IMG/VR virus record: IMGVR_UViG_3300038468_000170
Span: 1-64,000 of that record
Reading direction: 5' to 3' (one strand)
Length of the DNA: 64,000 nucleotides
Source: a virus
Both the position numbers and the translations under genes were made by a program. The notes beneath the pieces are model-generated. The model did not search any database and was not told the DNA's origin. It saw only the letters and a list, made by a program, of their open reading frames with translations. Shown one piece after another: positions 1 to 39,798 of the stretch. How positions within the stretch are numbered: the first letter of the stretch is position 1; every line of letters starts with the position of its first letter.

Positions 1-2
1 TC

Positions 3-791
3 CGTCTCTACCTCGCCAAGCTCGCGGAGGACGGCTTGAGCGTCTCGACCGTGAACCAGTTCCTCTCCGCCATCGGGGAGGCGCACGAGGCCGAGGGGCA
101 CCTCTCGCCGCGGTTCCACCCCGCCGTCCAGCAAGTCTGGCGCGGCATCCGTCGGACGAAGAAGGTCCGCGCCGTCGGGATGAAGCCGCTCCTCGCCGAG
201 CACATCAAGAAGATGCTCGCGGCAACGCCGGACATGTCAATGCTCAACGCCCGGGACCGCGCGATCGTCGCCTTCGGCTGGGCTTGCGCGATGCGGCGCC
301 ACGAGATCGTGGACACGCACGTCGAGCACGTCACCTTCCACGACAAGGGCTTCACGGTGCTCATCGAGCGCGCGAAGGAGGACCAGGAGGGCAACGGCTT
401 CGAGAAGATGGTGCTCTTCGGGAAAAACGAGGCGACCTGCCCGGTCCGCATCCTGAAGCGCTGGCTCGCCGTCTCGCGCATCACGACGGGTCCCATCTTC
501 CGACCGGTGAACCGCTGGGGCCGCGTCGTCCAGTACGGCGAGCAGGAGCGCCTCTGGCCGCAATACGTCGAGAAAGTCGTGAAGCGCCTGATGACGAACG
601 CGGGCATCGACCACAAGGGCTACGGCGCGCACTCGCTCCGCGCCGGGTTCATCACCCAGGCCGCGCTCAACGGACACACCGAGAGCGAAATCATGCGGCA
701 CTCGGGCCACTCGAACACCAAGATCGTGCAGCGGTACATCCGCATCGCGAACCTCGACAAGAAGAACGCCACGGAGGACATGGGCTTGTGA
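3..791 (+). CDS. Cre-like tyrosine recombinase, 5'-truncated by window edge
   Basis: Frame open from position 3; catalytic residues R (AMRRHEI), K (RAKEDQ), HSLRAGF, GH and Y (VQRY) of the Cre-like integrase family. Confidence 0.92.
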   Translation, partial: RLYLAKLAEDGLSVSTVNQFLSAIGEAHEAEGHLSPRFHPAVQQVWRGIRRTKKVRAVGMKPLLAEHIKKMLAATPDMSMLNARDRAIVAFGWACAMRRHEIVDTHVEHVTFHDKGFTVLIERAKEDQEGNGFEKMVLFGKNEATCPVRILKRWLAVSRITTGPIFRPVNRWGRVVQYGEQERLWPQYVEKVVKRLMTNAGIDHKGYGAHSLRAGFITQAALNGHTESEIMRHSGHSNTKIVQRYIRIANLDKKNATEDMGL

Positions 792-1384
792 CTGGATCAC
801 CCGCACTCGCAGGGCGGCTGGATCCGCGCCTCCTCGCGGTTCACAACGCCTGCGAGCTGTGGGACTACTCCCTCTCTGGGAAGTACGACAAGGACGGCGT
901 GCGCCTCGTCGCCGGGCACTACTCCAGGCGAAAACCGTCGTCTCCGCAGTTTATGCCGCCGGGAGAGACGATCGTGACCGTGGCGAAGACGCGAGATGCG
1001 GTCTGGGGGTGGTGGCGACCTCACCCGGACAGCGGCCTTGTTGCGATGAACGGGCGTGACGGTTGGACGTGCAGCGTGTTCGCGAACCACGGAGAGATCC
1101 TTTCAAGCGAGCTCGTATTGGACGCGGAGCGCGCTCTCGCGGCGCTTGATGCCGCGAAGCTTACGGCGGGGCCGTGCGGTCCGGACGGCATGCTGACCTA
1201 CGTGTGGCGCTCGAAGGTGAAAAGCCCGAACCCAGGCTACTGCTACAAGGTCGCTGGCTGGACGAAGATCGGAACGTGCGCGCGTGGGTCGAAAGACTTG
1301 CTCTGGAAACCGCTGGAACTCGCGGGCATTGCCGCCTGTGGGGCATTGCGGAACGACCGGCTCCGATCGGAGCCCAGAAGGTGA
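788..1384 (+). CDS. Phage protein, possibly Mom-like/GNAT-fold DNA modification enzyme
   Basis: GTG start overlaps recombinase stop; HYSRRK..SPQFMPPG, LSSELV and LTYV...NPGYCYKVAGW motifs resemble Mom-family C-terminal motifs. Confidence 0.45.
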   Translation: MTGSPALAGRLDPRLLAVHNACELWDYSLSGKYDKDGVRLVAGHYSRRKPSSPQFMPPGETIVTVAKTRDAVWGWWRPHPDSGLVAMNGRDGWTCSVFANHGEILSSELVLDAERALAALDAAKLTAGPCGPDGMLTYVWRSKVKSPNPGYCYKVAGWTKIGTCARGSKDLLWKPLELAGIAACGALRNDRLRSEPRR

Positions 1385-1401
1385 GCGGATCTACATGGCA
1401 C

Positions 1402-1462
1402 CCCTGAAGCATCCCCGAACCAGAAGCCGTGCTCAGCGGAGCACGAGAGAGGTGGTTTCTTG
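1402..1462 (+). repeat. Cassette-boundary element copy 1
   Basis: CCCTGAAGCA-N29-GCACGA-GAGAGGTG...TTG; start codon at +58. Confidence 0.85.
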
Positions 1463-1708
1463 AATCAGTCCAAACTACCCGAACAGGAGCGCACTGAGTT
1501 TGGCCTCGCGCTGAGTGCCTTCGTGCACAACAACAGGGCGCGCGCCGAGTCGCCGTCGGAAGTCGTTGGCTCACTCGTCGGAACTGCGGCAGCCGAGCAC
1601 ATCTATGCCGAACAGAGTCGAGAGGACTTCGTTCGCATCTGTGAGCATGCCTTCGATGAAACCAAAGACTTCTACGCGCGGCTCGTTGAAGCGGAGCATC
1701 GCCAGTGA
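1460..1708 (+). CDS. Hypothetical protein (cassette cargo)
   Basis: TTG start at +58 of element with GAGAGGTG RBS. Confidence 0.7.
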   Translation: MNQSKLPEQERTEFGLALSAFVHNNRARAESPSEVVGSLVGTAAAEHIYAEQSREDFVRICEHAFDETKDFYARLVEAEHRQ

Positions 1709-1965
1709 AACGGGGTTGCCGCCGTGTCCGTGAAATCCTGGCTCTCTGGGGCGAGCCGAGAACCATGGCGCGCGTCCAGGGAACTGTAGAGGAGTGCTTC
1801 CCGACTCGACACGGGTACAACGTCTGGATCGATCGCGAGGGGCGTCACGTAGCCGTTCGCTTCGCGCGGGACGTGGGATCGATCATCGAGGGCATCGCGT
1901 CGACGTGGACGGAAGCGATCCTCGCCGTCTGTGAGGCCAGGGCCACCCCCAGGAGTCGACCGTGA
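1705..1965 (+). CDS. Hypothetical protein
   Basis: GTGA overlap with upstream gene. Confidence 0.55.
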   Translation: MKRGCRRVREILALWGEPRTMARVQGTVEECFPTRHGYNVWIDREGRHVAVRFARDVGSIIEGIASTWTEAILAVCEARATPRSRP

Positions 1966-2114
1966 AGTGTTCGGCTACCGAAGACGGCCGACACCGATGG
2001 GAAACCGTGTGGCGGGTCGGTCCCGAGGTTAAGGAACGTTGTATTCGGTGCGATGAGGCGCGCATCCGGCGCTCCTCGGTGAGCGCGACCGAAAAGACTG
2101 CGGGGAAACCGTGA
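1962..2114 (+). CDS. Small hypothetical protein (50 aa, CxxC), not in ORF track
   Basis: AGGAG RBS, GTG start; MKCSATEDGRHRWETVWRVGPEVKERCIRCDEARIRRSSVSATEKTAGKP ends at the TGA inside element copy 2. Confidence 0.6.
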   Translation: MKCSATEDGRHRWETVWRVGPEVKERCIRCDEARIRRSSVSATEKTAGKP

Positions 2115-2169
2115 AGCATCAGAAGGCGGCTGTCCGCGTGGAACGGAGACAGGAAGAGGTGATTCTTTG
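2109..2169 (+). repeat. Cassette-boundary element copy 2
   Basis: CCGTGAAGCA...GAAGAGGTG...TTG at +58. Confidence 0.85.
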
Positions 2170-2379
2170 ACCAAGTTTATCATCGAGTATTGGCCCGAAG
2201 GTGCAACCGGCACGAGCGTTAAGCGCGACGGTACGATGTGGATCGTTGAGGCCGAGGACGCAACCGATGCGGTTCGGGTCGCGTTGCTGTCTGGCCTTCC
2301 CGTGGGTGCCAGGATCGAAAAAGCGTGGGCGCTCGCGAACAAGGTGAACGAACCAAAAGAGATGAGCTCCGCACCGTGA
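2167..2379 (+). CDS. Hypothetical protein (cassette cargo)
   Basis: Starts at +58 of copy 2, stops inside copy 3. Confidence 0.75.
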   Translation: MTKFIIEYWPEGATGTSVKRDGTMWIVEAEDATDAVRVALLSGLPVGARIEKAWALANKVNEPKEMSSAP

Positions 2380-2434
2380 AGCAATCCCGAATCAGAAACC
2401 GTGCGGACCGGAGCACGAGAGAGGCGGTCTCTTG
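2374..2434 (+). repeat. Cassette-boundary element copy 3
   Basis: CCGTGAAGCA-N29-GCACGAGAGAGGCG...TTG at +58. Confidence 0.9.
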
Positions 2435-2590
2435 AACCAGCCATCGAACGGTTTGGTCGTCACACGGCACGTAAGCGAAGCGCGCGACTACGAGCTACTC
2501 GATGAGCTAGAGGCGCTAGCAGGAAGCTCTTGGTGGGATATGCTCACCAACAGTCTCGGGATTCGCGAAAAACCTGCGGTGCAGCCGTGA
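2432..2590 (+). CDS. Small hypothetical protein (52 aa), not in ORF track
   Basis: MNQPSNGLVVTRHVSEARDYELLDELEALAGSSWWDMLTNSLGIREKPAVQP; starts at +58 of copy 3, stops inside copy 4. Confidence 0.65.
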   Translation: MNQPSNGLVVTRHVSEARDYELLDELEALAGSSWWDMLTNSLGIREKPAVQP

Positions 2591-2645
2591 AGCAATCGAA
2601 CGACCCCGACACGAAGGAACCCGTCACGGCGGAGGCGAGTCCCCC
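2585..2645 (+). repeat. Cassette-boundary element copy 4
   Basis: CCGTGA...TCACGG perfect inverted ends 39 nt apart, then GGAGGCG. Confidence 0.85.
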
Positions 2646-2838
2646 ACCTAGACAGCTTCGACACGACACCGGTCCTTACGGCGGACGCCCATGTTCGCGG
2701 TGTGGGCTCGTCTACTCGCCGAAGGTGGCCTATGTGCCGTGTTTCGTGGAGGGAGACACGCTCGTGACCTGGCTCGCGCGACAGTCCGACGAAGTGGTAG
2801 CGCTGACAGGTCTCCGGCGCCGCGAAAGGACCCCATGA
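2587..2838 (+). CDS. Hypothetical protein (CxxC) whose N-terminus is encoded by the element
   Basis: GTG within CCGTGA; N-terminus MKQSNDPDTKEPVTAEASPPP resembles those at 4634 and 5261. Confidence 0.55.
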   Translation: MKQSNDPDTKEPVTAEASPPPRQLRHDTGPYGGRPCSRCGLVYSPKVAYVPCFVEGDTLVTWLARQSDEVVALTGLRRRERTP

Positions 2839-3239
2839 GCCACGTGAAGCGTCAGAAAACCGCTATTCGCGCGAAGCGGGTCACGCGAATGCCAGGCCCT
2901 CCACCTAGGAAGACTGCCGCGTACCGTCTCTCGCCTGGAACGTATAAGTACCAAAAATGCCTCCCCGCGGAAGAGGATGTGCGGCGTCGCCCTGAAGTCG
3001 AGCGCGGGCGGGCCAAGTCTGGCTCGACCCATTTGAAGCGTGCACGTTGCGTTGTTTGCCGGCGGCCGAACGACACGACGTTCGGGGAGACGCTCCGTGC
3101 GTATTGGGGATTCTGTCGTGCATGCGCCCGCAGTTACGACCGGGCTCGCGACAAGGACGCTACGACGTTGGCGCTCATCTCCTGGGCAGCGAACCGTGCT
3201 TGGGTGAGCGCGCAGAAAAAGACCAAGGTGCAACCGTGA
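2835..3239 (+). CDS. Basic hypothetical protein with CxxC...CxxC
   Basis: ATGA overlap, AAGGA RBS; ends KTKVQP inside copy 5. Confidence 0.6.
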   Translation: MSHVKRQKTAIRAKRVTRMPGPPPRKTAAYRLSPGTYKYQKCLPAEEDVRRRPEVERGRAKSGSTHLKRARCVVCRRPNDTTFGETLRAYWGFCRACARSYDRARDKDATTLALISWAANRAWVSAQKKTKVQP

Positions 3240-3295
3240 AGCAGTGAGTAACGGCTGTCTGGACGGAGCGGGTCACGTAAGGAGGCAATCTCGTG
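3234..3295 (+). repeat. Cassette-boundary element copy 5
   Basis: CCGTGAAGCA-N29-TCACGT-AAGGAGGC...GTG at +59. Confidence 0.85.
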
Positions 3296-4162
3296 AGCTA
3301 CATGCACATCAACAATCTGTACAAGGACCAGCGCGTGCTCGCCTTCCGGGAGTGCTACGCGCTGGAGAAAATCCACGGGACGAGCGCACACGTGCGGTGG
3401 TCCGGCTCGCAGCTTCACTTCTTTTCCGGCGGAGAGAAGCACGAGCGGTTCTGCACGCTGTTCGACGCCGCGAAGCTAAGCGAGGCGTTCCTCGCAATCG
3501 GCCACGATCCCGTCGTCGTCTACGGCGAGGCGTACGGAGGCAAACAGCAGGGGCAATCTCACCGATACGGCAAGGAGTTGCGGTTCGTGGCGTTCGAGGT
3601 GCAGGTGGGAGACTCCTGGCTCGATGTACCGAACGCCGCTGACTTCGTCTCGAAACTCGGTTTGGAGTTCGTCCATTTTGTGAAAGTCCCGACGGACCTA
3701 GCTGCGCTCGATGCGGAGCGGGACGCACCTTCAGAGCAGGCCCGCCGCAACGGCGTGGAAGGCGACCATCCGCGCGAGGGAGTGGTGCTACGCCCGATCT
3801 TCGAGGTGCGAACGAACAACGGCGATCGCATCATCGCGAAGCACAAGCGCGACGATGAGCGAGAAACCAAGACGCCGCGTCAGGTCGTGGATCCGTCAAA
3901 ACTCCAGGTGCTCCAAGCGGCCGAGGCAATCGCCGAGGAGTGGGTCACTCCGACGCGGCTCGCTCACGTCCTGGACAAGCTCGGAGATGTGAGCATCGAA
4001 CAGACCCGCGACGTCATCGCGGCCATGACGGAGGACGTGCTCCGCGAAGGTGCCGGGGAGCTGACCGATAGCCGCGAGGCGCGCGCCGCCATCGGGAAGA
4101 AAACCGCCGGACTGTTCAAGGCGCGGCTCCGGGCGGCGCTAGGTGAGCAGAGGGCGAAGTAA
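3293..4162 (+). CDS. RNA ligase (Rnl2-like nucleotidyltransferase)
   Basis: Motif I EKIHGT, motif III YGEAYG, IIIa FVAFEV, IV REGVVLRP, V IAKHK. Confidence 0.85.
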   Translation: MSYMHINNLYKDQRVLAFRECYALEKIHGTSAHVRWSGSQLHFFSGGEKHERFCTLFDAAKLSEAFLAIGHDPVVVYGEAYGGKQQGQSHRYGKELRFVAFEVQVGDSWLDVPNAADFVSKLGLEFVHFVKVPTDLAALDAERDAPSEQARRNGVEGDHPREGVVLRPIFEVRTNNGDRIIAKHKRDDERETKTPRQVVDPSKLQVLQAAEAIAEEWVTPTRLAHVLDKLGDVSIEQTRDVIAAMTEDVLREGAGELTDSREARAAIGKKTAGLFKARLRAALGEQRAK

Positions 4163-4173
4163 CCGCGTGGCAA

Positions 4174-4234
4174 CCGTGAAGCATCCCCGAGACACTGTCC
4201 GTACGGAGCGGAGCTAGAAAGAGGTGATTCGTTG
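4174..4234 (+). repeat. Cassette-boundary element copy 6
   Basis: CCGTGAAGCATCCCCGA...AAAGAGGTG...TTG at +58. Confidence 0.9.
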
Positions 4235-4624
4235 ACCAAGGGTTTCTGGTCCCGATTGCTGGACCACTTCCGGCCAGCACAGCGCGTTCCTGCTCCGCCG
4301 CGCATTGGTCGTGTGGTCATACATTCGATCCGATGTGTCGGGTGTGGGAAGCCGCTTGAACACGGGCAGCTTGTCGTGACGGTAGACGGAGAGCTATCGA
4401 CTGGAGAACCGTTTCCCTTCACAGGCCATGCGACGTGCATGGTGCTTGTGCGCAAGTCAGACGGGACAGTCGAGGGCACGCCGCACAAGCACAGCATCTT
4501 GCTCACTGAATCTGAGTGGGAGCGCTGGAAGGCAACCGAGGCTCGTGGCGAGTCACCTGGCGGAGAGGTTCGGGTCATCGGCGTAAACGAGCACGCGCTT
4601 CCTCGATTGGTGAGCGGGCGTTGA
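4232..4624 (+). CDS. Hypothetical protein (CxxC...HxxC)
   Basis: TTG at +58 of copy 6. Confidence 0.65.
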   Translation: MTKGFWSRLLDHFRPAQRVPAPPRIGRVVIHSIRCVGCGKPLEHGQLVVTVDGELSTGEPFPFTGHATCMVLVRKSDGTVEGTPHKHSILLTESEWERWKATEARGESPGGEVRVIGVNEHALPRLVSGR

Positions 4625-4633
4625 AAGGACCAA

Positions 4634-4942
4634 ATGAACCCTGTGAAGCAGCACGACACCGCTACTCCCGCGGAACCTATCACGGCGGAAGCTATTCCTC
4701 TACCTAGCCACGAACGCGAGACTGATCGAGCGGAGCGAATCGCGAAAGAGTCTGGCGTCGAGAAATCCGTAGCTCTGGACATCGGCTACTTGCGTGATCT
4801 GGAAGCTCGAATCGTGGATGCCGCCCACCGCCATCCGGAGCTGCGGGACTTTCCAGTGTTCAATGCGTTGCTGGAGACGTTCCTCGATGCCCTGGAGAAT
4901 CAAGGTGGCGCAGAGCCACAGAAGACGGAGCCCGCACCGTGA
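4634..4942 (+). CDS. Hypothetical protein
   Basis: AAGGA RBS; N-terminus runs through element copy 7; stop inside copy 8. Confidence 0.65.
   Translation: MNPVKQHDTATPAEPITAEAIPLPSHERETDRAERIAKESGVEKSVALDIGYLRDLEARIVDAAHRHPELRDFPVFNALLETFLDALENQGGAEPQKTEPAP
4641..4701 (+). repeat. Cassette-boundary element copy 7 (degenerate)
   Basis: CTGTGAAGCA-N29-TCACGG. Confidence 0.7.
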
Positions 4943-4997
4943 AGCATCCCCGAATCAGAAGCCGTGCAGACCGGAGCACGAGAGAGGTGAGTCGTTG
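4937..4997 (+). repeat. Cassette-boundary element copy 8
   Basis: Near-identical to copies 1 and 3; TTG at +58. Confidence 0.9.
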
Positions 4998-5264
4998 ACC
5001 TACGATGAAGCGGTCGGTCTGGCGATCTACACGAACCGCAAGATCCGCGGCGTCTCGCAGCCGGAGCTTGCCGAAGCTCTCGGGCTTACCGCCTCTGCGG
5101 TCTCGCGCCTGGAAGGCGGAGTCACGAAGGTGACGGTCGTGCATCTTCGCAAGATTTCCAGAAAACTAGCGGTGGCATCGTCGGTCATCGTTGAGGATGC
5201 CGAGAGATACTTCGGCAGAGCCGAAGGTGGCGCCATCAAAAGAAAGACAGCGGTGCAGCCGTGA
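4995..5264 (+). CDS. XRE/Cro-like HTH DNA-binding protein
   Basis: RKIRGVSQPELAEALGLTASAVSRLEGG; true start likely the TTG at +58 of copy 8. Confidence 0.85.
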   Translation: MTYDEAVGLAIYTNRKIRGVSQPELAEALGLTASAVSRLEGGVTKVTVVHLRKISRKLAVASSVIVEDAERYFGRAEGGAIKRKTAVQP

Positions 5265-5319
5265 AGCATCCCCGAGCCGCAGTCCGTGTGCAGCCCGTCA
5301 CCGAGGAGGCGAGTCCTCC
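5259..5319 (+). repeat. Cassette-boundary element copy 9
   Basis: CCGTGAAGCATCCCCGA-...-TCACCG-AGGAGGCG. Confidence 0.85.
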
Positions 5320-5503
5320 ACGTAACGAATTGATGCTCGCTGTGCAGCGGAAGGACCTTGAAGAGCTTCGGAGGAAGCATGGGCAGGACTGCGAAAAGCT
5401 GGACGCACACGTGCGATACCGCCTTGGACATCCGAGCGATTGGTGCTCGTGCGGAGCCGACAACCACAACGCGCGGCTCGACAGGATTCTAGGTGGCGCG
5501 TGA
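5261..5503 (+). CDS. Hypothetical protein
   Basis: Starts within copy 9; H..C...WCSCG. Confidence 0.55.
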   Translation: MKHPRAAVRVQPVTEEASPPRNELMLAVQRKDLEELRRKHGQDCEKLDAHVRYRLGHPSDWCSCGADNHNARLDRILGGA

Positions 5504-5518
5504 CGCGCCCGAAAAATC

Positions 5519-5734
5519 ATGAAAATCCACCACTCGACCGGCTACGTCCACATCGATCTCTCGGCGGCCGAAGCACGTGTGCTTCTCGAGGAGCTCTCGA
5601 ATGTCCGCGGTGGGGCGCGCCTGCCGAAGCTCCGGCAGGTGTGCAAGGGGCTCGAGGCGCTGCTCGTGCTTACGGAAGTGCCTCCGGTGAAGCGTGGACG
5701 GCCGCCAAAGACGAACGGGAGCGGACTCAACTAG
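5519..5734 (+). CDS. Hypothetical protein with AT-hook-like KRGRPPK
   Basis: ORF; KRGRP motif. Confidence 0.55.
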   Translation: MKIHHSTGYVHIDLSAAEARVLLEELSNVRGGARLPKLRQVCKGLEALLVLTEVPPVKRGRPPKTNGSGLN

Positions 5735-5735
5735 A

Positions 5736-5957
5736 ATGTCGCACGAAAACGGCAGGGGTGCTCGCTTGCGGGATGAGGCGCAGCGGGCGTGCGACGAGAT
5801 TTTCGACCATAATCCTAGGGAGGAAGCGCGCGTCGTCGTCGTACTAATCGGAGAAGGAACCGACATGGGCCTCTATTCCGTTGGCGGCAGAAAGGTCGAT
5901 CGGAAGGGGATCCTTCGAGCGCTCAAAAAGACGCTGGCACATCTGGAAGGGAACTAG
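5736..5957 (+). CDS. Hypothetical protein
   Basis: Tight gene packing, ATG at 5736. Confidence 0.5.
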   Translation: MSHENGRGARLRDEAQRACDEIFDHNPREEARVVVVLIGEGTDMGLYSVGGRKVDRKGILRALKKTLAHLEGN

Positions 5958-5959
5958 TC

Positions 5960-6682
5960 ATGCGCAGCACGTTCATCTTGGCTCTGATGTTGGTCGGTTG
6001 CAGTGGGCAGCCGTTCACTGCTTCGATGATTGGCTCCGTGTCCGACGGCGGCGATCAGGTCGAGACCGATGGCTCGGGCGGATCTGCTTCGACAGAGACG
6101 GGCGGTGCTGCTGAGAGTGGCGGGCGCGCCGGCACCGGCGGACACGTTGGCGTCGGCTCGGGCGGCCATTTCGAGACCGGTGGGAGCTCGTCGACTGGAG
6201 GGCGAAGCACTACCGGAGGATCAACGTCGACCGGAGGCGTGAACAGTTCATCAGGCGGCTCAAGTGGCGCGACTGGATCCACGGGAGGTTCGTTTGCTAC
6301 AGGCGGCGCCTCGAGCTCGACCGGTGGCACCCCGAGTGATGCATGCGTGCTTGTTACGCACGACAACGGTATCGGACAGACGTGGCAGGACTGCGTGCCA
6401 CTCGACACCTACAACGCGACGCAGGCAACCGCAGCGTGCGAAGCGTACAAGGCGGCTCACGTGGCATCGTGTTCTAGTGCGCGATGCGTGCTCGCCCTCG
6501 GTTCGTGTATCAGCATCGGCAGTAACAGTGTCGAATACACTGCTGACTGCGGAGGCGGCGCCATTCTCTGGACCTACGCGCCAGGAACAGCAAACCCGAC
6601 CGGGGGCGGCCATGTCGTGAACATAACTACCGCCAGTAGTCCCGATGGCTGTCCGACGTCACAAGATCCGTCATGGGATTGA
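5960..6682 (+). CDS. Lipoprotein with Gly/Ser/Thr linker and Cys-rich C-terminal domain
   Basis: Lipobox MRSTFILALMLVG-C; GGST-rich linker typical of myxobacterial lipoproteins. Confidence 0.8.
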   Translation: MRSTFILALMLVGCSGQPFTASMIGSVSDGGDQVETDGSGGSASTETGGAAESGGRAGTGGHVGVGSGGHFETGGSSSTGGRSTTGGSTSTGGVNSSSGGSSGATGSTGGSFATGGASSSTGGTPSDACVLVTHDNGIGQTWQDCVPLDTYNATQATAACEAYKAAHVASCSSARCVLALGSCISIGSNSVEYTADCGGGAILWTYAPGTANPTGGGHVVNITTASSPDGCPTSQDPSWD

Positions 6683-6694
6683 GGAGGTGCAAAA

Positions 6695-6907
6695 ATGGCC
6701 CGCGCAAGAATCACGGAGATGAAAGAGGGACGAGTCATCTTCGCGAAAATCTCGCCTCCCATGAACGGAAGCGACCTCGTGCTTGAGGTGCACCAATACG
6801 AACGTGAGAGGCCGCTCATCCGACAGGTGCTATTCCTCGTCATCTCGAGGGAAGAGTTCTCGGCACTCGCGAAGGACATGCGCGAGTTCGAGACGGAAAT
6901 ACAGTAG
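6695..6907 (+). CDS. Hypothetical protein
   Basis: GGAGGT RBS. Confidence 0.65.
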   Translation: MARARITEMKEGRVIFAKISPPMNGSDLVLEVHQYERERPLIRQVLFLVISREEFSALAKDMREFETEIQ

Positions 6908-7215
6908 GGCGGTGCATGACGCGGTCAGGCGGCATCGAGGAAAGATGAGACCACGCCCCGTGAAGGTTTATGACATTTCTCCGCGCGTGTTTGAAAAGAG
7001 GTTCGCTGATTTGATTCGCGGCTTGTCGTTTCTGTCTGGAGTGCCGATGCCGCGTTACGGAGGACGGTTTGGTCATTGGGGCAATCGTTCTCCAGATCCG
7101 TGGGCGTCATTGCGTCGATCTGCTCGAATATTTTGCAATCAAGACGAGGTTCATGCTCACGGGCCACCGAAAAATCAGTCCAACTGAACGCCTAGCCTCG
7201 TGGTAGCCTCGCGGC

Positions 7216-12752: not shown

Positions 12753-13113
12753 GAACAACCAAATCATCGGTCGGATCGTCATCAGGCGCGCGTTCTCGTC
12801 GATCGTTCGCCCCGACCAGACGAAGGACATCACCAAGTTCATTTTGGTCGATGCGGTCGGTAGCGGCGCCGCAGCCAAAGGTGTCAAGATCGGCGACGTC
12901 ATCGTTCCAATGGCGATCGGGAAAATCATGCTGGACGACGGATTCCGACCGTCCCTCGAAGAGGAGAACGTCGGATTTTTCGTTCGGGACGTGAGCCCGA
13001 GCGATCTCCTGATCCAGACGGACAACGGCCTCGAGTACGTCCCCTTCGACTCCGAGAAGGCGGCGAAGTCGCTCGGCGCGGTCGTGAAGGAAGCCGAATC
13101 CGAGGCGGCATGA
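12736..13113 (+). CDS. GroES-like co-chaperonin
   Basis: MKLEPRNNQIIGR...IVRPD...VDAVGSG...VKIGDVIV matches the GroES pattern. Confidence 0.6.
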   Translation: MKLEPRNNQIIGRIVIRRAFSSIVRPDQTKDITKFILVDAVGSGAAAKGVKIGDVIVPMAIGKIMLDDGFRPSLEEENVGFFVRDVSPSDLLIQTDNGLEYVPFDSEKAAKSLGAVVKEAESEAA

Positions 13114-20550: not shown

Positions 20551-21885
20551 ATGGCAAAGAGCAACAGCAGCAGAAGCATCACCGGCAGGAAGATCTACAA
20601 TTTCGAGCGGGAGAAGGGGAAGGTCCAGCGCATGCAGTTCGGCCTCGGCGCAACGCCGGGCGACCTCGGCGCTGCGCAGAAGTGCATCAAGTGCAGCTTC
20701 GGCAACATCCCCGTCATCGAAGAGGTCGTGTGGACGATCCCTCTGCCGCTCACGGCTGAAGAGGCGCTCGCGACTCTCGGAGACACCGTCAATCTGCTCT
20801 CGGGTAGCTCCAGCGTGCCCGGTGTCGCGTCGATCGATTCGACGTTCCTCATCAACGGCATCCTCCAGACGGACATCCTCGCGCAGGGCGTGGGCGTGCA
20901 CATCTTCTGCGAGCCGATGTCGTTCTCTACGATCGGCAACTCCTTCGCGGCTCCGGCGACGACTGAGGTTCCCCCTCCTTCTCCGGACGTGTTCACGGAC
21001 AACGACTTGTTCAACGGAGCGCTTGGCGGTCAGTTCGCTGGTGCCACCCCGACGAGTGACACTCCGCCGACTCCGGCGGTGTTCGAGTTCGGCGCGGCCG
21101 TTTGGCGCGCGGGCTGGAACTTCATCAACGCATACCAGTTCCAGTGGAAGACCTCGCAACGTGAACTCGTGTTGAACGAGCTCGCGTCGGACGTCTCCTA
21201 CTTCGGCTCCTTCGCGGACGCCGAAGCGAGCGGTACGAGCGAGGTGCCCATCATCGAGTTCGTCGCTGCGGTGAACGCGACTTACCGCTCGAAGGGATCG
21301 GCAACGATCTTCCTGCCGGTTTCCTTCCGGCGTGTCGGTTCGGTGAACAGCACGAGCGCGACCAACAACGTCGGTGTTTTCCATCCGACGCGCGACTTCG
21401 ATCTTGCTCCGGTCACCTGGGGCGGCCTCCGGTGGCAGGGCTACGGATGCCGTGGCCAGATGTACCGGCCGATCGAGAGCCCCTGCTTCCTCGAGCGCGG
21501 CATCCCCATCGGCATGCTGTTCACCGTGCAGGACGCCGTTCACCAGGCGCTCATGCTCGAGGCAGTCACGATCAACAACGAGCCTCTCGGCAGCAACATC
21601 TCGCCGGACACGAACTTCTCGTGCGCGTCTCAGGTGGGACCTGCCGCCGGGAACGGAGTTCCGACTGCGGGAGCCATCGCCTCCGGAGCGAACAACGTCA
21701 TGCTGGAGCAGACGCTCGACACGACTCCGGTGCTCGTGCAGCAGTCGGTCAACGTTTGCCGAGAGGTCTTCAAGGGCGGCATCCTGAAGATCGGCATCAA
21801 GATCAAGGGCTGGGAAATGCCCGGAGGCTGGAAGGCGTACTGCGAGACCAACATGCCGCAGCTCATGGGTCCTCGGACGGCCTGA
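20551..21885 (+). CDS. Candidate major capsid protein (beta-rich, possibly jelly-roll)
   Basis: 444 aa, strong codon bias, GGAG RBS, no TM helix, followed by a strong hairpin; position in the virion module. Fold unverified. Confidence 0.5.
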   Translation: MAKSNSSRSITGRKIYNFEREKGKVQRMQFGLGATPGDLGAAQKCIKCSFGNIPVIEEVVWTIPLPLTAEEALATLGDTVNLLSGSSSVPGVASIDSTFLINGILQTDILAQGVGVHIFCEPMSFSTIGNSFAAPATTEVPPPSPDVFTDNDLFNGALGGQFAGATPTSDTPPTPAVFEFGAAVWRAGWNFINAYQFQWKTSQRELVLNELASDVSYFGSFADAEASGTSEVPIIEFVAAVNATYRSKGSATIFLPVSFRRVGSVNSTSATNNVGVFHPTRDFDLAPVTWGGLRWQGYGCRGQMYRPIESPCFLERGIPIGMLFTVQDAVHQALMLEAVTINNEPLGSNISPDTNFSCASQVGPAAGNGVPTAGAIASGANNVMLEQTLDTTPVLVQQSVNVCREVFKGGILKIGIKIKGWEMPGGWKAYCETNMPQLMGPRTA

Positions 21886-24169: not shown

Positions 24170-25519
24170 ATGCAGTACCACCGAGTTCAGTACGGAGAGA
24201 GCCCGACGATGATCGCGCGCCGCTACGGCGTGTCGCTCGACCGGCTCGTTGCCGCGAATCCCCACAAACGCACCAAGATGGTCGCGAGCACTCGGACCTT
24301 CGAAGGGATCCGCCCCAACGAGGTGGTGCACGTGCCGGTCGGAGTTGGAGCCGTCGCTCCTGCCGATCCGAACGCGCCGCACGCGCAGATCAAGCAAGGA
24401 AGTCGCGGAGCCGACGTCGCGCTCTGGCAGACGATCATCGGCGTTACAGCGGACGGCATCTTCGGGCCGAATACCGCTCAGGCAACGAAAGCGTGGCAGA
24501 GCAGGCACGGCGTCGCTGCGGACGGCATCGTCGGTCCGAAGACATGGGCGGCGGCACTCGGCGGCGGAGCTCCGGCGCCTTCCGCGCCTATTTCCGTGAC
24601 TGCTCCGACTCCCGCGCCGTCTTCGGGACTTGCTGCGGCAGCCGCAGCGGCGCTCGCGGCACTCAGCGCTGACTCGAACTACTGCGTGAGCGTCGGTCGC
24701 GTAGGAACTCCGGTCAACACGACCGTCCACAACTTCAAGGCCGCGTGGAACTCTTCGAATCCGGGTAGCCCGGTTCCCATCGGCACCGGCAAATACGAGC
24801 CGGTCGTGGCGAATGCGCTCTCGTCGGCGCTCGGGGGGCAGACTGTTCCTCCGGGATGTGGTGCGGCCCCGGCAGCTCCGCCTCCGCCTGTCGCACCTCC
24901 TCCTCCCGTCGCGCCTCCGCCGGTCACGCCGCCGTCGGTGACGCCCGTCGCGCCGAGCGTCCCCAGTGCCCCCAGCGTGCCGAGCGCTGTGGGCGCGTTG
25001 ACGGTCATCGACCCGTGTGACCAGACGAACGTCAACATCGTCCGCCAGGCGCAAAGTGTCCTCGGCGTCACCGTCGACGGAAAGTACGGTCCGAACACGG
25101 CGGCTGCCGCGAAACGGCTCGTCCCGAGCGCTCCGGCCGCGTGCAGTCCGACTCCGTCGTGGTGGGGAGCGAAGGGCAGCGCACCGACGCCCCCGCCGAC
25201 CGCGCGTCCGCCGATCCCCTCGCCCGCGGCTCCGGTTCCCGCACCGACACCGGCCGCGCCTACCCCAGGAGTTCCCGCACCGGCCGCGCAGGCGCCTGCG
25301 GCCCTTGGTCCCGCACAACCCCCCGTCGTCGTCCCCGCAGAGAAGAAGATCTCGACCGGCGCAATCGTGGCCGGCGCTGTCGGCGCGGTGGCTCTCGTCA
25401 GCCTCGCTGCCGTCGCGATGTCGGGCAAGAAACCGGGGCATCGCGGCGGTCGTCGACCGGCGCACAAAGGTCCCTCGCGTCGCAAGAAGAAGTCCAAGCG
25501 CAGTTCAAGGAAGAGGTAA
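24170..25519 (+). CDS. LysM + peptidoglycan-binding domain tail-anchored protein
   Basis: HRVQYGESPTMIARRY (LysM); GSRGADVALWQ...DGIFGPNT...DGIVGPKT (PG_binding_1); C-terminal TM and basic tail. Confidence 0.85.
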   Translation: MQYHRVQYGESPTMIARRYGVSLDRLVAANPHKRTKMVASTRTFEGIRPNEVVHVPVGVGAVAPADPNAPHAQIKQGSRGADVALWQTIIGVTADGIFGPNTAQATKAWQSRHGVAADGIVGPKTWAAALGGGAPAPSAPISVTAPTPAPSSGLAAAAAAALAALSADSNYCVSVGRVGTPVNTTVHNFKAAWNSSNPGSPVPIGTGKYEPVVANALSSALGGQTVPPGCGAAPAAPPPPVAPPPPVAPPPVTPPSVTPVAPSVPSAPSVPSAVGALTVIDPCDQTNVNIVRQAQSVLGVTVDGKYGPNTAAAAKRLVPSAPAACSPTPSWWGAKGSAPTPPPTARPPIPSPAAPVPAPTPAAPTPGVPAPAAQAPAALGPAQPPVVVPAEKKISTGAIVAGAVGAVALVSLAAVAMSGKKPGHRGGRRPAHKGPSRRKKKSKRSSRKR

Positions 25520-33119: not shown

Positions 33120-33388
33120 CCATCTATGTGGACGAACTCGTGTCCTGGGATACCCTCAACCGACACATCGGTTGTCGGCTTTTCACGAACCCATTCGTGG
33201 AAGATCCGGAAAGCACGGAAGAGCTCCACCGAATCGCGGCGTCGCTCGGCCTATCGCCCGACCTCCATTTCGTGCGTGGCACCTATCTTCTCGTGAAGGC
33301 GCGCCGCCAAATGGCGATCGAGCGCGGCGCCGTCGACATCGCTGAAAACTCGATCTTCAGATTCGTGGAGCCGACCGATGGCGGGTAG
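33116..33388 (+). CDS. DUF4031-like protein
   Basis: MTIYVD...[12 protein letters not shown]...[13 protein letters not shown]. Confidence 0.55.
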
Positions 33389-36300
33389 CTGGACGCATAC
33401 CTTTTCGGCACCAGCCGGGGCGGCGTTTCCTGTCGGGATAATGCTCTCGGACGGACGGATCCTGTTCGGGGATGACGCCGGGCTACCGTCAACACCCACC
33501 GTGCCGGCGGTTTTCACGGCGCCATTCAACTGGTGGATCCTGACTCCCGACTCGAACGGAAACTATCACACGGGCACGTTCGCGCGGGTGCGCACGAGCT
33601 TCGGAGCGCACCTCTACTCGCCGCTTGCGCTCGCGAACGACGGAGAGTTCTACGTGTTCGGCGGCGAGTATCAGATGTCCTCGCCGTTTTTCAATACGTG
33701 CGAGCTCTTTCGGACCCGCTCGAACGTGTGGGAACTTTTGCCGAACCCACCATGGCCTGGAAACCGAAACGGTGACGATGCGGGCCAGGTACTGAATGAC
33801 GGCCGCCTCTTCGTCGTAGCGATCGGGGCCGGCTCGGCCATATTCGATCCGGCGACGGGGACCTGGACTAGCGCGGCATCTCAGCCGGTGTCGCTCGACG
33901 AAGCATCGAATGTACTCCTCCCGAACGGCGCGATGCCGTTCACGGACTGCTTCAATCCTCCGGCGACGTACCGATACGATCCGGGAACCAACACATGGTT
34001 CGCCGATGCGAACACGACCACGGATCTCATTCGCACCCTGACCGCAGAAATCGGACCGTGGATCCTCTTACCAGACGGGCGGGCGTGGCTCATCGGGGGG
34101 AACGGCCACACGAACTACTACACGCCGAACGCTTCGCCGCTCCTCGCTGGCACATTCGCCGCCGGTCCGGACCTCCCGATCGATCCGCTCACCGGCGCGC
34201 TCATGCAGATCAACGACGGAGACGGCCTTTTACAAGTCGACGGCACGATCTTCTTTTTCGCCGGCCCGAACGGAGACACTCCCCCGGTCGGTCCCGGCGC
34301 GGCGTTTCCGTCACCTGCCTACACTCTCGTCGGCGATCCGATCGGCAACACGGTGACGCGCGTCGCCGATGCGCCGGGAGGACTCGCGTCGAACCCATCG
34401 CTTGCGCTCCGGACGATCATGCTGCCGACGGGCGACATTCTCGTGTTCTTTCAGGGCACGCTCGCCATCTGGAACACAGGGGCCGGACCGAACAACGCCT
34501 GGCGGCCGACGATCACGAAGTGTCCAAAAGGACTCCAGGGCGGCCAGACGTACTCACTTACCGGCACGCAATTGAACGGCATCGCCCGCTCGAACTCCGG
34601 AGGCGACGACTACTGGCAAAACCAGTTGCCGCTCATCAGAATCACGCACGTCGCAAGCGGCACAGTGACCTATTGCCGGAGTTACGGGCTCTCGACACTT
34701 GCCGTAGCAACGGGCGGCGCGCCCATCACGATGAAATTCACGGTGCCGCTCGGGATCCCGCTCGGACCGAGCACGCTCGAGGTGGTCTCGAACGGCATCG
34801 CGAATCAGACGCCGGTCGCGGTGACGGTGTTCCCGCAAACGCGGTTTGGCGTATCGGGGATCGGCATCGACTCGGATCATTCAGTGCCGGCAAATGTCGA
34901 GGTCGCGGAGCTACAGGTTGCCCGCGGAGCGATCTCGTGGCCGGCGGACGGACCCGGCCCGGCACTCACCCAGGACACGACAACCACCGGATCAGGTCGC
35001 ACCGCGCAGCTTGCGCCGCAATGCTCGACGGTTGCGCAAGGGGGCGCGACAGCCGTGCCGAGCGCGCCGTTTTCGGGGGGCATCACGCCCGGAGCCCCGG
35101 TGCTCTCGATTGCAGGAGACGGCGCTGGAAGCGGCGGGGCAGGTGGTCAGTTCCAAGCGCAAGGTGGACGAGGGTCCCCGAGCGGCACATCGGCGGGAGG
35201 CGCTGCCGCGGTAATCGGCGGTGACGGCGGATTCAATCTCGGTGCTGGCGGTACAGGCACGATCAGCGGTGGCAACAGCGCTTCGAAATCCGCGGGCGGA
35301 AACGCAGTCGCTCACGGAGGCCAGAACATCCCTGGTACCGGTAACCCCGGCATCGTGCGACTCGATCGCAGCGCAGAGATACTCATGACCGGAGTCGGTG
35401 CCGTGCCGGTGGCTCCGATCGCTGGCTCCCATCAGGTTGCAATCTACGCAAAGAACACAAACCCATCCGAGCTCCACGTCGTGGAAGATGACGGCACGGA
35501 CTTTACGATCGGTGGCACGGGAGCACGCTTACTCGGCGACTTCAACACAGCGGGCGTCTACAACGTCACGGTGCCCGCGAATGTGAGCCGCATCTGGGGC
35601 CAAATCAGAAACGGTGCCGGAGGCGGCGCGGGCGGTGGAAGCGGAGCCGGCGGACAACAAGGAGGCGCAGCTCAGACCGGTGGCGGTGGTGGTGGCCCGG
35701 GGGGCAACGGCATGAACTGCGCCTCCGAGGCCATGCCCGCGTGTCTCGTGACCCCTGGCGATAGCCTGACCATTACGGTTGGCGCGGGCGGCACGGGCGG
35801 CACGGGCGGCGCGGCCGTTGCTTTCGATACCGACGGCAACGGAGGCGCGGGAGGTAAGGCCGGTGGGATCACGAGCATATTCAACGCCACGACCGGAAAG
35901 TTTCTCATCAAGGGCGCTAACAACACGGGCGGCGGACTCGGGCCGAATACTGCTGCGCTGTCCGGTACGCACGGCGGAAACGGTGGTCAAGTACCGTCGA
36001 CGATGCGCGGCGTCTGGGGTCAGAACGCGCTACCAGGTACGGCGGTTGGAATCGTTGGCCCGGCGGGCGGGGCAGGAGGGCTCAGCGCGAACGGTACTAA
36101 TTCGATCACACTCACGGCTCTCCTAAATACGTTCGCGGTCGGATCAGATCCTCACACGCCGGTCGAGCAACTGACATTCGGCGGGATCTCTGCCGGCACC
36201 ACGCAGGTGCAACGTGGAAACACGGGAGCGGGTGGTGCGGTACTCGGATTTTCGGGCGGCGGAGGCGGCGGGTGTCCAGGATTCTCGAGCGGCACAGGTG

Positions 36301-36560
36301 ACGAAGCAACGATCGATGGTGTGGTCGCTCCTCTCCCAACTGACGGTCGTGGCGGAGACGGAGGCAATGGCGGCTCCCAAATCGGACCGACCTTGCCTGT
36401 CGCCGGAGGTAACGGAACCAACGGAATAGATGGCCGAGGTGGAGGCGGGGGAGGCGGAGGCGGGGGAGGTTCGGCAGGAAACCCAATCGGCCAAGGGGGC
36501 GCAGCAGGCGGAAATGGCGGCAACGGCTCGGACGGTCGCGCCGTGCTGTTTGTCGCCTAG
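33378..36560 (+). CDS. Large Kelch/galactose-oxidase-like beta-propeller + Ig-like + Gly-rich fibre protein
   Basis: Repeated L.DGR...GG blade motifs, WRPTIT...LTGTQLNG...LEVVSNGIA, Gly-rich C-terminal half. Confidence 0.75.
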   Translation: MAGSWTHTFSAPAGAAFPVGIMLSDGRILFGDDAGLPSTPTVPAVFTAPFNWWILTPDSNGNYHTGTFARVRTSFGAHLYSPLALANDGEFYVFGGEYQMSSPFFNTCELFRTRSNVWELLPNPPWPGNRNGDDAGQVLNDGRLFVVAIGAGSAIFDPATGTWTSAASQPVSLDEASNVLLPNGAMPFTDCFNPPATYRYDPGTNTWFADANTTTDLIRTLTAEIGPWILLPDGRAWLIGGNGHTNYYTPNASPLLAGTFAAGPDLPIDPLTGALMQINDGDGLLQVDGTIFFFAGPNGDTPPVGPGAAFPSPAYTLVGDPIGNTVTRVADAPGGLASNPSLALRTIMLPTGDILVFFQGTLAIWNTGAGPNNAWRPTITKCPKGLQGGQTYSLTGTQLNGIARSNSGGDDYWQNQLPLIRITHVASGTVTYCRSYGLSTLAVATGGAPITMKFTVPLGIPLGPSTLEVVSNGIANQTPVAVTVFPQTRFGVSGIGIDSDHSVPANVEVAELQVARGAISWPADGPGPALTQDTTTTGSGRTAQLAPQCSTVAQGGATAVPSAPFSGGITPGAPVLSIAGDGAGSGGAGGQFQAQGGRGSPSGTSAGGAAAVIGGDGGFNLGAGGTGTISGGNSASKSAGGNAVAHGGQNIPGTGNPGIVRLDRSAEILMTGVGAVPVAPIAGSHQVAIYAKNTNPSELHVVEDDGTDFTIGGTGARLLGDFNTAGVYNVTVPANVSRIWGQIRNGAGGGAGGGSGAGGQQGGAAQTGGGGGGPGGNGMNCASEAMPACLVTPGDSLTITVGAGGTGGTGGAAVAFDTDGNGGAGGKAGGITSIFNATTGKFLIKGANNTGGGLGPNTAALSGTHGGNGGQVPSTMRGVWGQNALPGTAVGIVGPAGGAGGLSANGTNSITLTALLNTFAVGSDPHTPVEQLTFGGISAGTTQVQRGNTGAGGAVLGFSGGGGGGCPGFSSGTGDEATIDGVVAPLPTDGRGGDGGNGGSQIGPTLPVAGGNGTNGIDGRGGGGGGGGGGGSAGNPIGQGGAAGGNGGNGSDGRAVLFVA

Positions 36561-37770: not shown

Positions 37771-39798
37771 ATGCCCGGCCTCCGAAAGGAAGAGGCGCTG
37801 GTTCTTCGTGTTTTCAGCGTCACAATCACAGACAGCAAGGAGAACATCATCGGCGACGCAATTCGAAGCGTTGTCGACCACGTCGATCGCGTTCTCCTCG
37901 TCGACACTGGTATCACCGACCAGACCATCGAACGCGCCAGAGAAGTCGCCGGTGACAAGCTCATAGTCACCAAGCACAAGTGGGTCGACTTCTCGACCGC
38001 CCGCAACTTCGGCATCGACGTCGCTCGACGTAGAGGAGCCACTTGGATCGTCATCGTCGATTCTGACGAACGGCTCAACCTCTGTTTGGATTTGCGAAGT
38101 GCGCTCGCGAATGTACGAAAAGACATAGTGCGCATCGAATCGGACGACGGGCATTACCCGAAAGAGAAGATCCTACGTGCCGCGTCCGGGGTTCATTACT
38201 TCGGGCCGACTCACGAAGTGATGATCGGAGGCGAACGCGAAACGCTCGCAGGTGCGACATTCTCCGAGCTGCCGAAGTCCGCCGAGCAGTACAGACACAA
38301 GTTCGAACGCGACGTGAAGCTCCTGACCGAATTCGTCAAGAAACACCCCGACGATCCACGCTGGTGGTACTACCTCGGCGCATCGTACGAGGGACTCGGA
38401 GAACACGTACTCGCAGCCGAGGCATTCAGGGAATGCGTCGTGCGAAGAAGGTTCGGCGATGAAGCGGCTTGGGCCGCATACAAGCAGGCCGAGCAACTCT
38501 TCATGCTCGATCGATTCGAGGAAGCCATCATGGCGGCTGCTCGAGGAATGGGCGCGAACGCCACCTTCGCCGAGTGCGCATGGATCGCCGCCGTGTCCGC
38601 GACGCGGTTGGGCCGTAACGATCAGGCAATTGCCTGGGCGCGCATCTCTGAAGCAGTCGGTCGATACAAAGGATGCGGTACAGCCAGGGAATACTTCCGC
38701 TATATGCCAGCGCTGTACGAGCTTCCGTACGATGTCTTGAGATTCGTGCTTCCAGATGAAGCGAGCCAAGAGAAAGCAGATGCCGATTTTCACGCAGCCA
38801 AGCGCGCCCGCGTGGGGGCAACCGACGAATCCGATTTAGACCGCCTAAGCGTGTCTCGATCAGCATCCTGGCCGAGCCGAGACGAAGCGCGGTCGATGCT
38901 CAGGCCGCTGCCACTCTCGAGCATGTGCCCAAGCGCACGTGCCGTTCAGATACAGTTCACAGCCCCGGATGGGTGGCACCCTATGAACCCAAGCATCTGC
39001 TTGCACAAAGGCAAGATGATGTGCGTGGTACGGACCGTCAACTACTCACTGAACGGCAGGCAGTACACCATCAACGACCCGGAGAACGTCGTCCGCACCG
39101 AAAACTATCTCGGAGAACTCGGTCCAAACGGAGAATTCCTCCATCCGACGCTGATGCGCGACCTAGACACGTCCCCCAGACAGCCGTCGCAAATCGTTGG
39201 GTACGAGGACATCCGCTTGGTCTCGATCAAGGGATCCGATGGCGACGACGTACTAGCGGGAAGCTCGACGGTCTGCGACCGCGATCCGGCACGACGGATG
39301 ATCGCTCGGCTCGATTTCGATCGCGACGGAAACATAGAACGAGCCGTCGTACAGCCGACCAATCAACAACACGAGAAGAACTGGATGCCCCTCTCGGTGG
39401 GTGGCGAGTTCGCTTACATCTACTCGCTAGACCCGACGGCCATCCTACCGGGCCCCCTGCGGTCTTGTCCGTTCGCCCTCGAACACCTGCGCGGCAGCGC
39501 CGCAATCACCTTCAACGACGAATACCTGTGCGTCATGCACGAAACCATCGAGGCGAACGAAAGCCGGATCTACCTGCACCGGTTCGTGCGACTCGATGCA
39601 AAGTTCAACGTGACGGCCGTCTCGCCGGCTTGGATTTTCTCGCACTACGGCATCGAGTTCTGCGCAGGGCTCGTGCTCGACGGCGCCACCCTCGTTCTTT
39701 CCTATGGAATCACCGATCGGGAAGCGTGGATCATGCGAGTCGATGCGAGAGAGGTCGAAGCGATGCGGTGGATCACGCCAAAAGGACCCAACACATGA
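37771..39798 (+). CDS. GT2 glycosyltransferase + TPR + beta-propeller (glycosidase-like) fusion
   Basis: LVDTGITDQT, DFSTARN, IVDSDE, THE; TPR-like DPRWWYYLGASY; NPSI, GYEDIRL, EKNWMP, IEFCAGL. Confidence 0.85.
   Translation: MPGLRKEEALVLRVFSVTITDSKENIIGDAIRSVVDHVDRVLLVDTGITDQTIERAREVAGDKLIVTKHKWVDFSTARNFGIDVARRRGATWIVIVDSDERLNLCLDLRSALANVRKDIVRIESDDGHYPKEKILRAASGVHYFGPTHEVMIGGERETLAGATFSELPKSAEQYRHKFERDVKLLTEFVKKHPDDPRWWYYLGASYEGLGEHVLAAEAFRECVVRRRFGDEAAWAAYKQAEQLFMLDRFEEAIMAAARGMGANATFAECAWIAAVSATRLGRNDQAIAWARISEAVGRYKGCGTAREYFRYMPALYELPYDVLRFVLPDEASQEKADADFHAAKRARVGATDESDLDRLSVSRSASWPSRDEARSMLRPLPLSSMCPSARAVQIQFTAPDGWHPMNPSICLHKGKMMCVVRTVNYSLNGRQYTINDPENVVRTENYLGELGPNGEFLHPTLMRDLDTSPRQPSQIVGYEDIRLVSIKGSDGDDVLAGSSTVCDRDPARRMIARLDFDRDGNIERAVVQPTNQQHEKNWMPLSVGGEFAYIYSLDPTAILPGPLRSCPFALEHLRGSAAITFNDEYLCVMHETIEANESRIYLHRFVRLDAKFNVTAVSPAWIFSHYGIEFCAGLVLDGATLVLSYGITDREAWIMRVDAREVEAMRWITPKGPNT

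Follow-up and report, generated by a model that had tools for sequence, protein, structure and literature searches.

Within the 96,019-bp IMG/VR virus record IMGVR_UViG_3300038468_000170 (genome label G000), we examined bases 1-64000, hereafter the window, whose first 5503 positions hold a run of small co-oriented genes separated by copies of one short repeated element and accompanied by a gene for a Cre-like tyrosine recombinase. The first-pass annotation of this locus had proposed an integron-like array in which that recombinase shuffles gene cassettes at the element; the question is therefore whether the element does mark exchangeable units and, if so, what kind of element it is. The cassette idea is supported, in that inter-genome comparisons show the elements to bound exchangeable gene units. 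The recombinase-driven mechanism is not supported. With somewhat more confidence than doubt, we favour the view that the element is a translational-coupling linker of ~100 nt that would double as the crossover point for cassette shuffling.

All nine motif copies placed by the first-pass annotation were recovered, each on the + strand: CCGTGAAGCA is exact at 2109, 2374, 2585, 3234, 4174, 4937 and 5259 and departs from the motif by a single base at 1402 and 4641. A search of the whole 96-kb genome gave no exact copy beyond these seven, all of which lie inside this 3.2 kb, while the reversed control pattern returned 0 copies. An ungapped alignment of the nine spans 90 nt. Seven copies have CACG 30 nt past the core followed by GAGG, six have a TTG or GTG at +58/+59 (1460, 2167, 2432, 3293, 4232 and 4995), and the inter-element spacing is 211-940 bp, as originally described. 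The CACG had also been taken for an inverted partner of the core, but the two do not covary and pair no better than shuffles, leaving merely a conserved CACG. A hidden Markov model built from the nine copies picked up position 2843 as a divergent tenth copy (E 5e-6 in nhmmer), and degenerate cores occur at internal gene junctions (CAGTGAAAC at the 1705 junction, ~1703; CCGTGAAGTG at 1960). Six copies of ATGAAGCA, in which ATG replaces GTG, are located at genome positions 94029, 94244, 94522, 95115, 95315 and 95588, upstream of the recombinase gene, the last being 53 nt ahead of the recombinase start codon. The array thus brackets the recombinase rather than beginning ~600 bp after it, as had been assumed.

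The wider family was collected from IMG/VR with two pattern scans and a subsequent nhmmer search, yielding ~75 copies in ~22 loci from ~20 viral contigs of 9-140 kb (labels beginning with G denote genomes and those beginning with L denote loci); family-wide counts were taken over 73 copies. The copies always lie on one strand and form clusters, with 2 to 11 or more per array. Neighbouring copies are separated by 119 nt or more, a stretch that includes an open reading frame (ORF), and zero are head-to-tail (tandem). The sole invariant part across the family is TGAAGCA, with flanks 50-70 % conserved, and hardly any of the proteins encoded behind ~70 copies are related to each other. Comparison of G000 with three other array-bearing contigs by blastn aligned almost nothing except the elements; tblastx between arrays was discarded as noise in high-GC DNA. 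Eight public sequencing runs contain the stretch and all are wetland metagenomes. As judged from these alignments, the element is shared by several unrelated uncultured wetland virus lineages, in their accessory (ORFan) region. Among INPHARED phages, the sole blastn match to positions 1-6000 was the RNA ligase of an uncultured 485-kb phage, with no similar cultured phage. In cellular genomes, a 22-mer of the commonest leader gave zero matches and a 17-mer gave at least 120 single matches, which is chance level, with no arrays and no prophage copy among the matches listed.

Gene content was found to change exactly at the elements, as the cassette idea had predicted: inter-genome homology blocks begin or end at the core, and in ten independent comparisons the block ends fell between -10 and +21 of it. 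Core-to-core units are shared by L041 and L063, by L067 and L070 (98 % identical) and by L049 and L070. The HTH (helix-turn-helix) gene of the window is 85 % identical over 5047-5268 to L043 1-222, the match stopping at the last core base. The clearest unit is that of the recombinase itself, 1000 bp that are 88-94 % identical in G000, G004 and G005 with unrelated flanks on both sides, beginning at the T of TGAAGCA and finishing with the stop codon. Its right end is an NTGA only, without AGCA, and in G004 the sequence upstream of it is not an element. Since the recombinase is the only protein common to G000 and G004/G005, elements and units cross from one virus lineage to another. Although 96 % identical to each other over 11 kb, G004 and G005 have the recombinase as their only common array unit. 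Near-identical leader subtypes also stand before unrelated genes, both within G000 (1402, 2374 and 4937) and in L041, L044 and L067, so the 3′ end of the leader is a place of breaks too. Metagenome contigs break at elements as well, and relatives with the same elements co-occur; in the eight wetland runs, searched as assembled contigs only, the joints were short cross-matches to elements of such co-occurring relatives. Queries for empty sites, consisting of junctions minus 57 nt, gave only self-matches in what is a small locus set. Two further leader subtypes, MKHGCTA and MKHETQSV, each occur twice in genome 94029-95641 (L045 10029-11641) and again in G005, L054, L066 and L070, each time before different genes.

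The first-pass annotation overlooked that stop and start overlap in the core and that a leader reading frame comes after it, an arrangement that ties the element to translation. In the core, NTGAAGCA, TGA is the stop of the upstream gene and the overlapping GTG or ATG is a start. In the class-1 copies of the window (1402, 2109, 2374 and 4937), the frame so opened is exactly 19 codons long and ends in a TGA overlapping the next TTG (TTGA), with a strong Shine-Dalgarno (SD) sequence, GAGAGGTG, embedded in the leader. In the fused copies (2585, 2843, 4641 and 5259), the leader frame continues into the downstream protein as its N-terminus, and two copies have shortened leaders (3 codons at 3234 and 13 at 4174). 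For a mutated core start (CTG at 1402), and for one that comes after another junction (2835 and 4634), the GTG being lost or unused, an in-frame ATG is found a few codons upstream, at 1395, 2835 and 4634.

The same geometry recurs in the family. In 59/73 copies the core TGA terminates an open frame of 40 or more codons, whereas 39 % of other same-strand TGAs do so; the 19-codon leader is present in 17/73, every one of which (17/17) ends in NTGA and overlaps the next start as TTGA, ATGA or GTGA (13 TTG, 3 ATG and 1 GTG starts). In a further 44 of the 73, leader and downstream ORF form one continuous frame, and these copies have a Pro-rich stretch in common. The long form of the element adds an SD of its own, AGGTGAGCG, and an ATG that lies seven codons ahead of the core, in the layout (TA)GGTGAGCG, 5 nt, ATGAAAGAC, 12 nt, GTGAAGCA. 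The leader frame is open in 68/73 copies compared with 48/73 and 58/73 for the other two frames, a modest signal. At the nucleotide level, fused-class leaders share the motif GCTCCACCTA (peptide ..PPP(R/T/I)), found at 2650-2660, 4700-4712 and 5312-5322 and in relatives; an SD-like GGAGG ahead of this motif could pair with its CCTCC.

It is the nucleotides and the frame geometry that are under selection and not the leader peptide, because the ratio of non-synonymous to synonymous variation (pN/pS) in frame (0.86-0.91) matches that of the out-of-frame controls (0.90-0.95) and leader conservation displays no third-position relaxation or codon periodicity. RNAalifold returned no consensus structure for 17 class-1 copies (0 consensus pairs), and both the CCGTG/CACGG pairing of the core and an inner hairpin scored no better than shuffled or slid controls; the GTGCTC/GAGCAC inner stem of three window copies was rejected as a hairpin because it is not kept across the family. 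Positions 1-7000 contain 0 sigma-70-like promoters on either strand, by a consensus that may not fit the host, and no terminator-like sites on the + strand; the lack of both in this interval fits one long coupled operon. A PF04542 search revealed no viral sigma factor, and one for the single-subunit RNA polymerase (PF00940) gave no match but is uninformative, as its control also matched nowhere. Likenesses to a Chi-like hotspot, an RfaH ops-like signal and a T4 MotA box (reverse complement TGCTTCA) were dropped as coincidences between short motifs, on account of wrong strand, spacing or distribution.

If the element is a coupling linker, ribosomes would pass from gene to leader to gene through termination-reinitiation. 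The NTGA arrangement (-4) is the commonest start/stop overlap, and coupling is reported to be most efficient at -4 to +3 nt (PMC12548453). With the SD held by the leader, genes would not need to encode their neighbour's signals, and units joined at the core would stay expressible. Exchange would then proceed by homology- or microhomology-guided recombination at the common core among co-infecting viruses, with selection for intact junctions following; a cassette-borne recombinase would not be needed. The linker would be a viable recombination point because it is the sole sequence common to otherwise unrelated units.

Several observations weigh against the coupling linker. AAGCA is kept in every copy, even in long-form copies that do not use the core TGA as a stop. 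The leaders at 3234 and 4174 are broken, yet the genes downstream look intact. Among class-1 copies alone, the leader frame is open in 17/18 and the other frames in 15/18 and 18/18, which makes them indistinguishable, and given the common ancestry of all copies the 17 class-1 geometries are not independent observations. The sigma-70 scan could miss promoters of the host. Finally, ten identical bases are short for classical homologous recombination, and no enzyme is tied to the core.

The first alternative, which we consider unlikely though worth weighing, is that the 57-nt leader or the whole ~100-nt element is a selfish insert resembling a mycobacterial interspersed repetitive unit (MIRU) or a miniature inverted-repeat transposable element (MITE), which targets NTGA junctions and is tolerated since its internal ORF preserves coupling, the core breaks being a by-product. 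The near-identical leader subtypes before unrelated genes (G000; L041, L044 and L067) would be expected of such an insert, and the class-1 unit measures exactly 57 nt from TGA to TGA, like an insert with a duplicated target; MIRUs (PMC12548453) provide a precedent. No leaderless version of the same gene pair was found among the loci compared, however, and the copies are highly diverged outside the core, which points to long-term selection rather than recent spread. Tandem copies, too, are lacking.

A second possibility is that the 7-nt TGAAGCA is a true site-specific crossover site, whether the enzyme is the Cre-like protein, a large protein with a tyrosine-recombinase domain or one of the host's. 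We rate this as unlikely, a site-specific reader of the core keeping a real, if minority, share of the probability because coupling leaves the strict AAGCA invariance unexplained. Were it true, the arrays would represent a virus-borne, cross-lineage integron analogue whose site is also a stop-start junction, with insertions expressed automatically.

The form of this idea in which the enzyme is other than the window recombinase, namely a recombinase (Xer-type or other) or nuclease of the host, or a family of 1250-1455-aa viral proteins, is likewise unlikely. In its favour, the invariance of AAGCA exceeds the needs of stop/start coupling, the core breaks are abrupt even where one partner (G004) has no upstream element, and unrelated lineages have the core but no regulator in common, which points to a host-encoded reader. 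The 1250-1455-aa ORF, which in Pfam matches only the C-terminal third of the tyrosine-recombinase catalytic domain, is encoded by G001 (L042 11285-15121), G011, G012, G013 and G015 and is absent from G000; it is positioned a few kilobases from the array in G001 and G012 but >45 kb away in G011 and G013. Against the idea, no enzyme is consistently linked to the arrays, the site is asymmetric and lacks inverted arms, and the recombinase cassette ends on its right with NTGA, AGCA being absent.

Improbable, in our view, is a transcription signal (a promoter, a stoperator-like operator or a pause/antitermination site) for which the frame features would be incidental. A short, asymmetric, orientation-specific invariant at gene starts does recall stoperators and the start-associated sequences (SAS) and extended SAS (ESAS) of mycobacteriophages (PMC9283540, PMC3203893), and the long form has three similar direct boxes (GGTGAGCG, ATGAAAGAC and GTGAAGCA) 12 and 21 nt apart. 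Against this, neither sigma-70-like hexamers nor a viral sigma factor was found, the unrelated viruses have no common regulator protein, and a DNA-binding site needs no fixed phase with stop and start codons.

The mechanism originally proposed, in which cassettes would be cut out and inserted at the element by the site-specific activity of the Cre-like recombinase (3-791), now seems very improbable. The description of the enzyme as Cre-like holds, as its best solved relative is Cre (6e-8 over the whole length); it also lies inside the array, it is the one protein that G000 shares with G004/G005, and the breaks fall at an invariant core of 7-10 nt, the size of a tyrosine-recombinase overlap region. 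The gene is co-oriented with the array, however, and because an element precedes it and it moves as a cassette, the recombinase is cargo in the array and not a demonstrated engine. Complete array-bearing genomes G009 and G010, with arrays of 3 and 4 copies, contain no PF00589 protein, and in G011 and G013 the only tyrosine-recombinase-like ORF is the one lying >45 kb from the array. No lox-like, dif-like or other inverted-repeat sites were detected near the recombinase or at the cores, which have no dyad symmetry, and there is neither an attC-like fold nor covariation. The recombinase scores 51 bits against the best NCBIfam model, for which the cut-off is 220, and lies far below all NCBIfam cut-offs, including those of integron integrases and Xer. 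Of the integron-like proposal, the cassette units bounded by elements stand; the element is not attC-like, the recombinase is not IntI-like, and the notion that the array is driven by its own recombinase is not supported.

Least credible is a shared N-terminal peptide tag (MK(H/Q)...PVT.E..PPP) targeting diverse proteins, for example to the virion: the in-frame fusions of 44/73 copies and the Pro-rich motif of the fused class would suit it, but a pN/pS of ~0.9 equal to that of out-of-frame controls, the lack of codon periodicity and leaders that are a separate mini-ORF in at least 17 copies and broken in some do not.

Returning to the coupling linker, the closest known parallel is the PeSL (promoter early stem-loop) element of T4-type phages, which combines a sigma-70 promoter with a terminator stem-loop, delimits transcription units (Arbiol et al. 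2010, PMC2839356; PMC4122927) and has been shown to be a site of modular shuffling (PMC2839356). Both are repeats that extend from an upstream stop codon to the next SD and start in a hyperplastic ORFan region, both mark insertions and replacements between relatives and both offer portable homology for shuffling. The viral linker differs in having no promoter-like hexamers in our scan and no conserved stem; its features are instead a stop/start overlap, a leader that looks translated, an invariant core of 7 nt and a distribution over unrelated lineages. MIRUs (Supply et al. 1997, described in PMC12548453) resemble the linker in being short intercistronic repeats whose internal ORF is NTGA-coupled to the flanking gene with operon expression preserved. 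They lie in chromosomes, often in tandem and in variable copy number, and are not reported as exchange boundaries, whereas the viral linker is single-copy per junction and marks cassette breakpoints.

Integrons resemble the arrays in their co-oriented, mostly promoterless, unrelated small genes and in exchange units bounded by a short conserved core. Their attC sites conserve structure rather than sequence and depend on the IntI integrase, which is encoded divergently, beside attI and Pc. In contrast, the linker is conserved in sequence, has no fold, lies on the 5′ side of the gene, looks translated and has no dedicated integrase. In cluster K mycobacteriophages, SAS/ESAS accompany particular gene families, and the ESAS have 17-bp inverted repeats (PMC3203893); in cluster A phages, stoperators are scattered over the whole genome and serve as binding sites for a repressor that the phage itself encodes (PMC9283540). 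These likewise occur as many one-orientation copies at starts or stops of non-structural phage genes; the linker, however, stands before unrelated genes in a single region and occurs across lineages that have no regulator in common. For lambdoid phages, PMC3029335 discusses a proposal that boundary sequences underlie mosaicism through homologous recombination at short conserved junctions; the viral linkers differ in being explicit, long and numerous and in also being translation signals. Lastly, the synthetic bicistronic design, as outlined in PMC5995908 and PMC12548453, consists of a first SD (SD1) and a short leader cistron containing SD2 with a stop/start overlap, a leader-SD layout that similarly insulates expression from neighbouring sequence. 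That design is engineered, whereas the viral linker is natural and repeated and overlaps the upstream gene's stop too.

On this reading, modules are shuffled by way of a linker that is a putative translational-coupling unit and is found across virus lineages. Phage mosaicism has been debated as boundary-sequence exchange versus random illegitimate recombination plus selection, and the arrays offer a concrete case of a boundary element, with dozens of junctions in unrelated viruses from one habitat, that makes this debate testable. A standard plug that keeps any gene pair coupled could also be put to use when genes are expressed in high-GC hosts. With its RNA ligase, HTH and Zn-finger-like ORFans, the cargo is of the early or counter-defence kind whose turnover drives virus-host arms races.

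Along the array, all features are on the + strand. The recombinase gene (3-791; PF00589, 3e-15) is 5′-truncated in the window, its start lying at genome 95641, and its stop overlaps the GTG start (GTGA) of a 198-aa phrog_24928 gene at 788-1384. Two phrog_24928 paralogs flank the recombinase (window 788-1384 and genome 94522-95118; 80 % nucleotide identity over 437 bp), giving the gene order A-B-C / A′-B′-recombinase-C′. We rejected phrog_24928 as a marker of arrays, as none of 16 viral loci encoding its relatives (L025-L040) has the element. Element 1 (class 1, 1395-1463) has a leader ORF that runs from ATG 1395 across the core CCCTGAAGCA (1402-1411) to TGA 1461-1463, overlapping TTG 1460 of the next gene. 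Three small genes follow (1460-1708, 1705-1965 and 1962-2114), joined by GTGA overlaps with degenerate cores. The stop of the third is the core TGA of element 2 (class 1, 2109-2170), whose 19-codon leader from GTG 2111 ends with TGA 2168-2170 over TTG 2167, the start of a 70-aa ORFan cassette gene (2167-2379). Element 3 (class 1, 2374-2435) repeats this layout, with 19 codons from GTG 2376 and TGA 2433-2435 over TTG 2432, and leads into a 52-aa ORFan cassette gene (2432-2590) whose stop is the core TGA of element 4.

Element 4 (fused class, 2585-2838; core 2585-2594) has GTG 2587 opening an 83-aa ORF, the first ~27 residues of which are leader (..PVTAEASPPPR..). An ATGA overlap at 2835 introduces the divergent tenth element (CGTGAAGCG at 2843-2851) and its 134-aa CxxC-rich ORF (2835-3239), which ends at 3239 with the core TGA of element 6 as its stop. 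Element 6 (3234-3295; core 3234-3243) has the 3-codon leader (TGA 3245-3247), an SD GGAGG and then GTG 3293, the start of a cargo gene for an Rnl2-type RNA ligase (3293-4162; PF09414, 1.9e-11; phrog_548; TIGR02307 below its cut-off). Positions 3524-4122 of this gene have 69 % nucleotide identity to LR745208.1, from the 485-kb uncultured phage. In element 7 (4174-4234; core 4174-4183), the 13-codon leader ends with TAG 4215-4217 and is followed by an SD and TTG 4232, TTGA being kept, which opens a 130-aa CxxC-containing ORFan (4232-4624). Element 8 (fused class, 4634-4942) has ATG 4634 and the core CTGTGAAGCA at 4641-4650; its 102-aa ORF (4634-4942) ends with the core TGA of element 9 (class 1, 4937-4998), in which the 19-codon leader from GTG 4939 closes with TGA 4996-4998 over TTG 4995. 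This TTG begins an XRE-type HTH cargo gene (4995-5264; PF01381, 6e-8), and element 10 (fused class, 5259-5503; core 5259-5268), the last array copy, has GTG 5261 opening an 80-aa ORF. The initial identifications of the RNA ligase (PF09414) and HTH (PF01381) genes hold; for the gene termed Zn-finger-like, the CxxC pairs seen in translations are there and are the sole basis of the label.

The 96,019-bp record has a CheckV completeness of 100 % and a G+C content of ~62 %. Its final 220 bases (genome 95795-96014; L045 11795-12014) are 97 % identical to window 1-220; because of this end overlap, the genome is probably circular or terminally redundant, despite its IMG/VR class of "linear", and the mismatches within the overlap suggest strain mixing in the assembly. 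Beyond the array, a tRNA-Val(CAC) gene is located at window 12947-13025 on the minus strand, and window 14230-36560 contains large co-oriented ORFs with no PHROG or Pfam match to capsid, portal, terminase or tail families. The sole domain matches among the large ORFs are peptidoglycan-binding/endolysin-like (24170-25519), Kelch repeats (33378-36560) and glycosyltransferase family 2 (GT2) with tetratricopeptide repeats (TPR) (37771-39798). A search of five other array-bearing genomes for the protein encoded at 20551-21885, run with no positive control, gave no match. Third-position G+C is 0.95 in the recombinase gene (3-791) versus 0.62-0.80 in the array genes (1460-5503); the cargo genes are of mixed compositional history.

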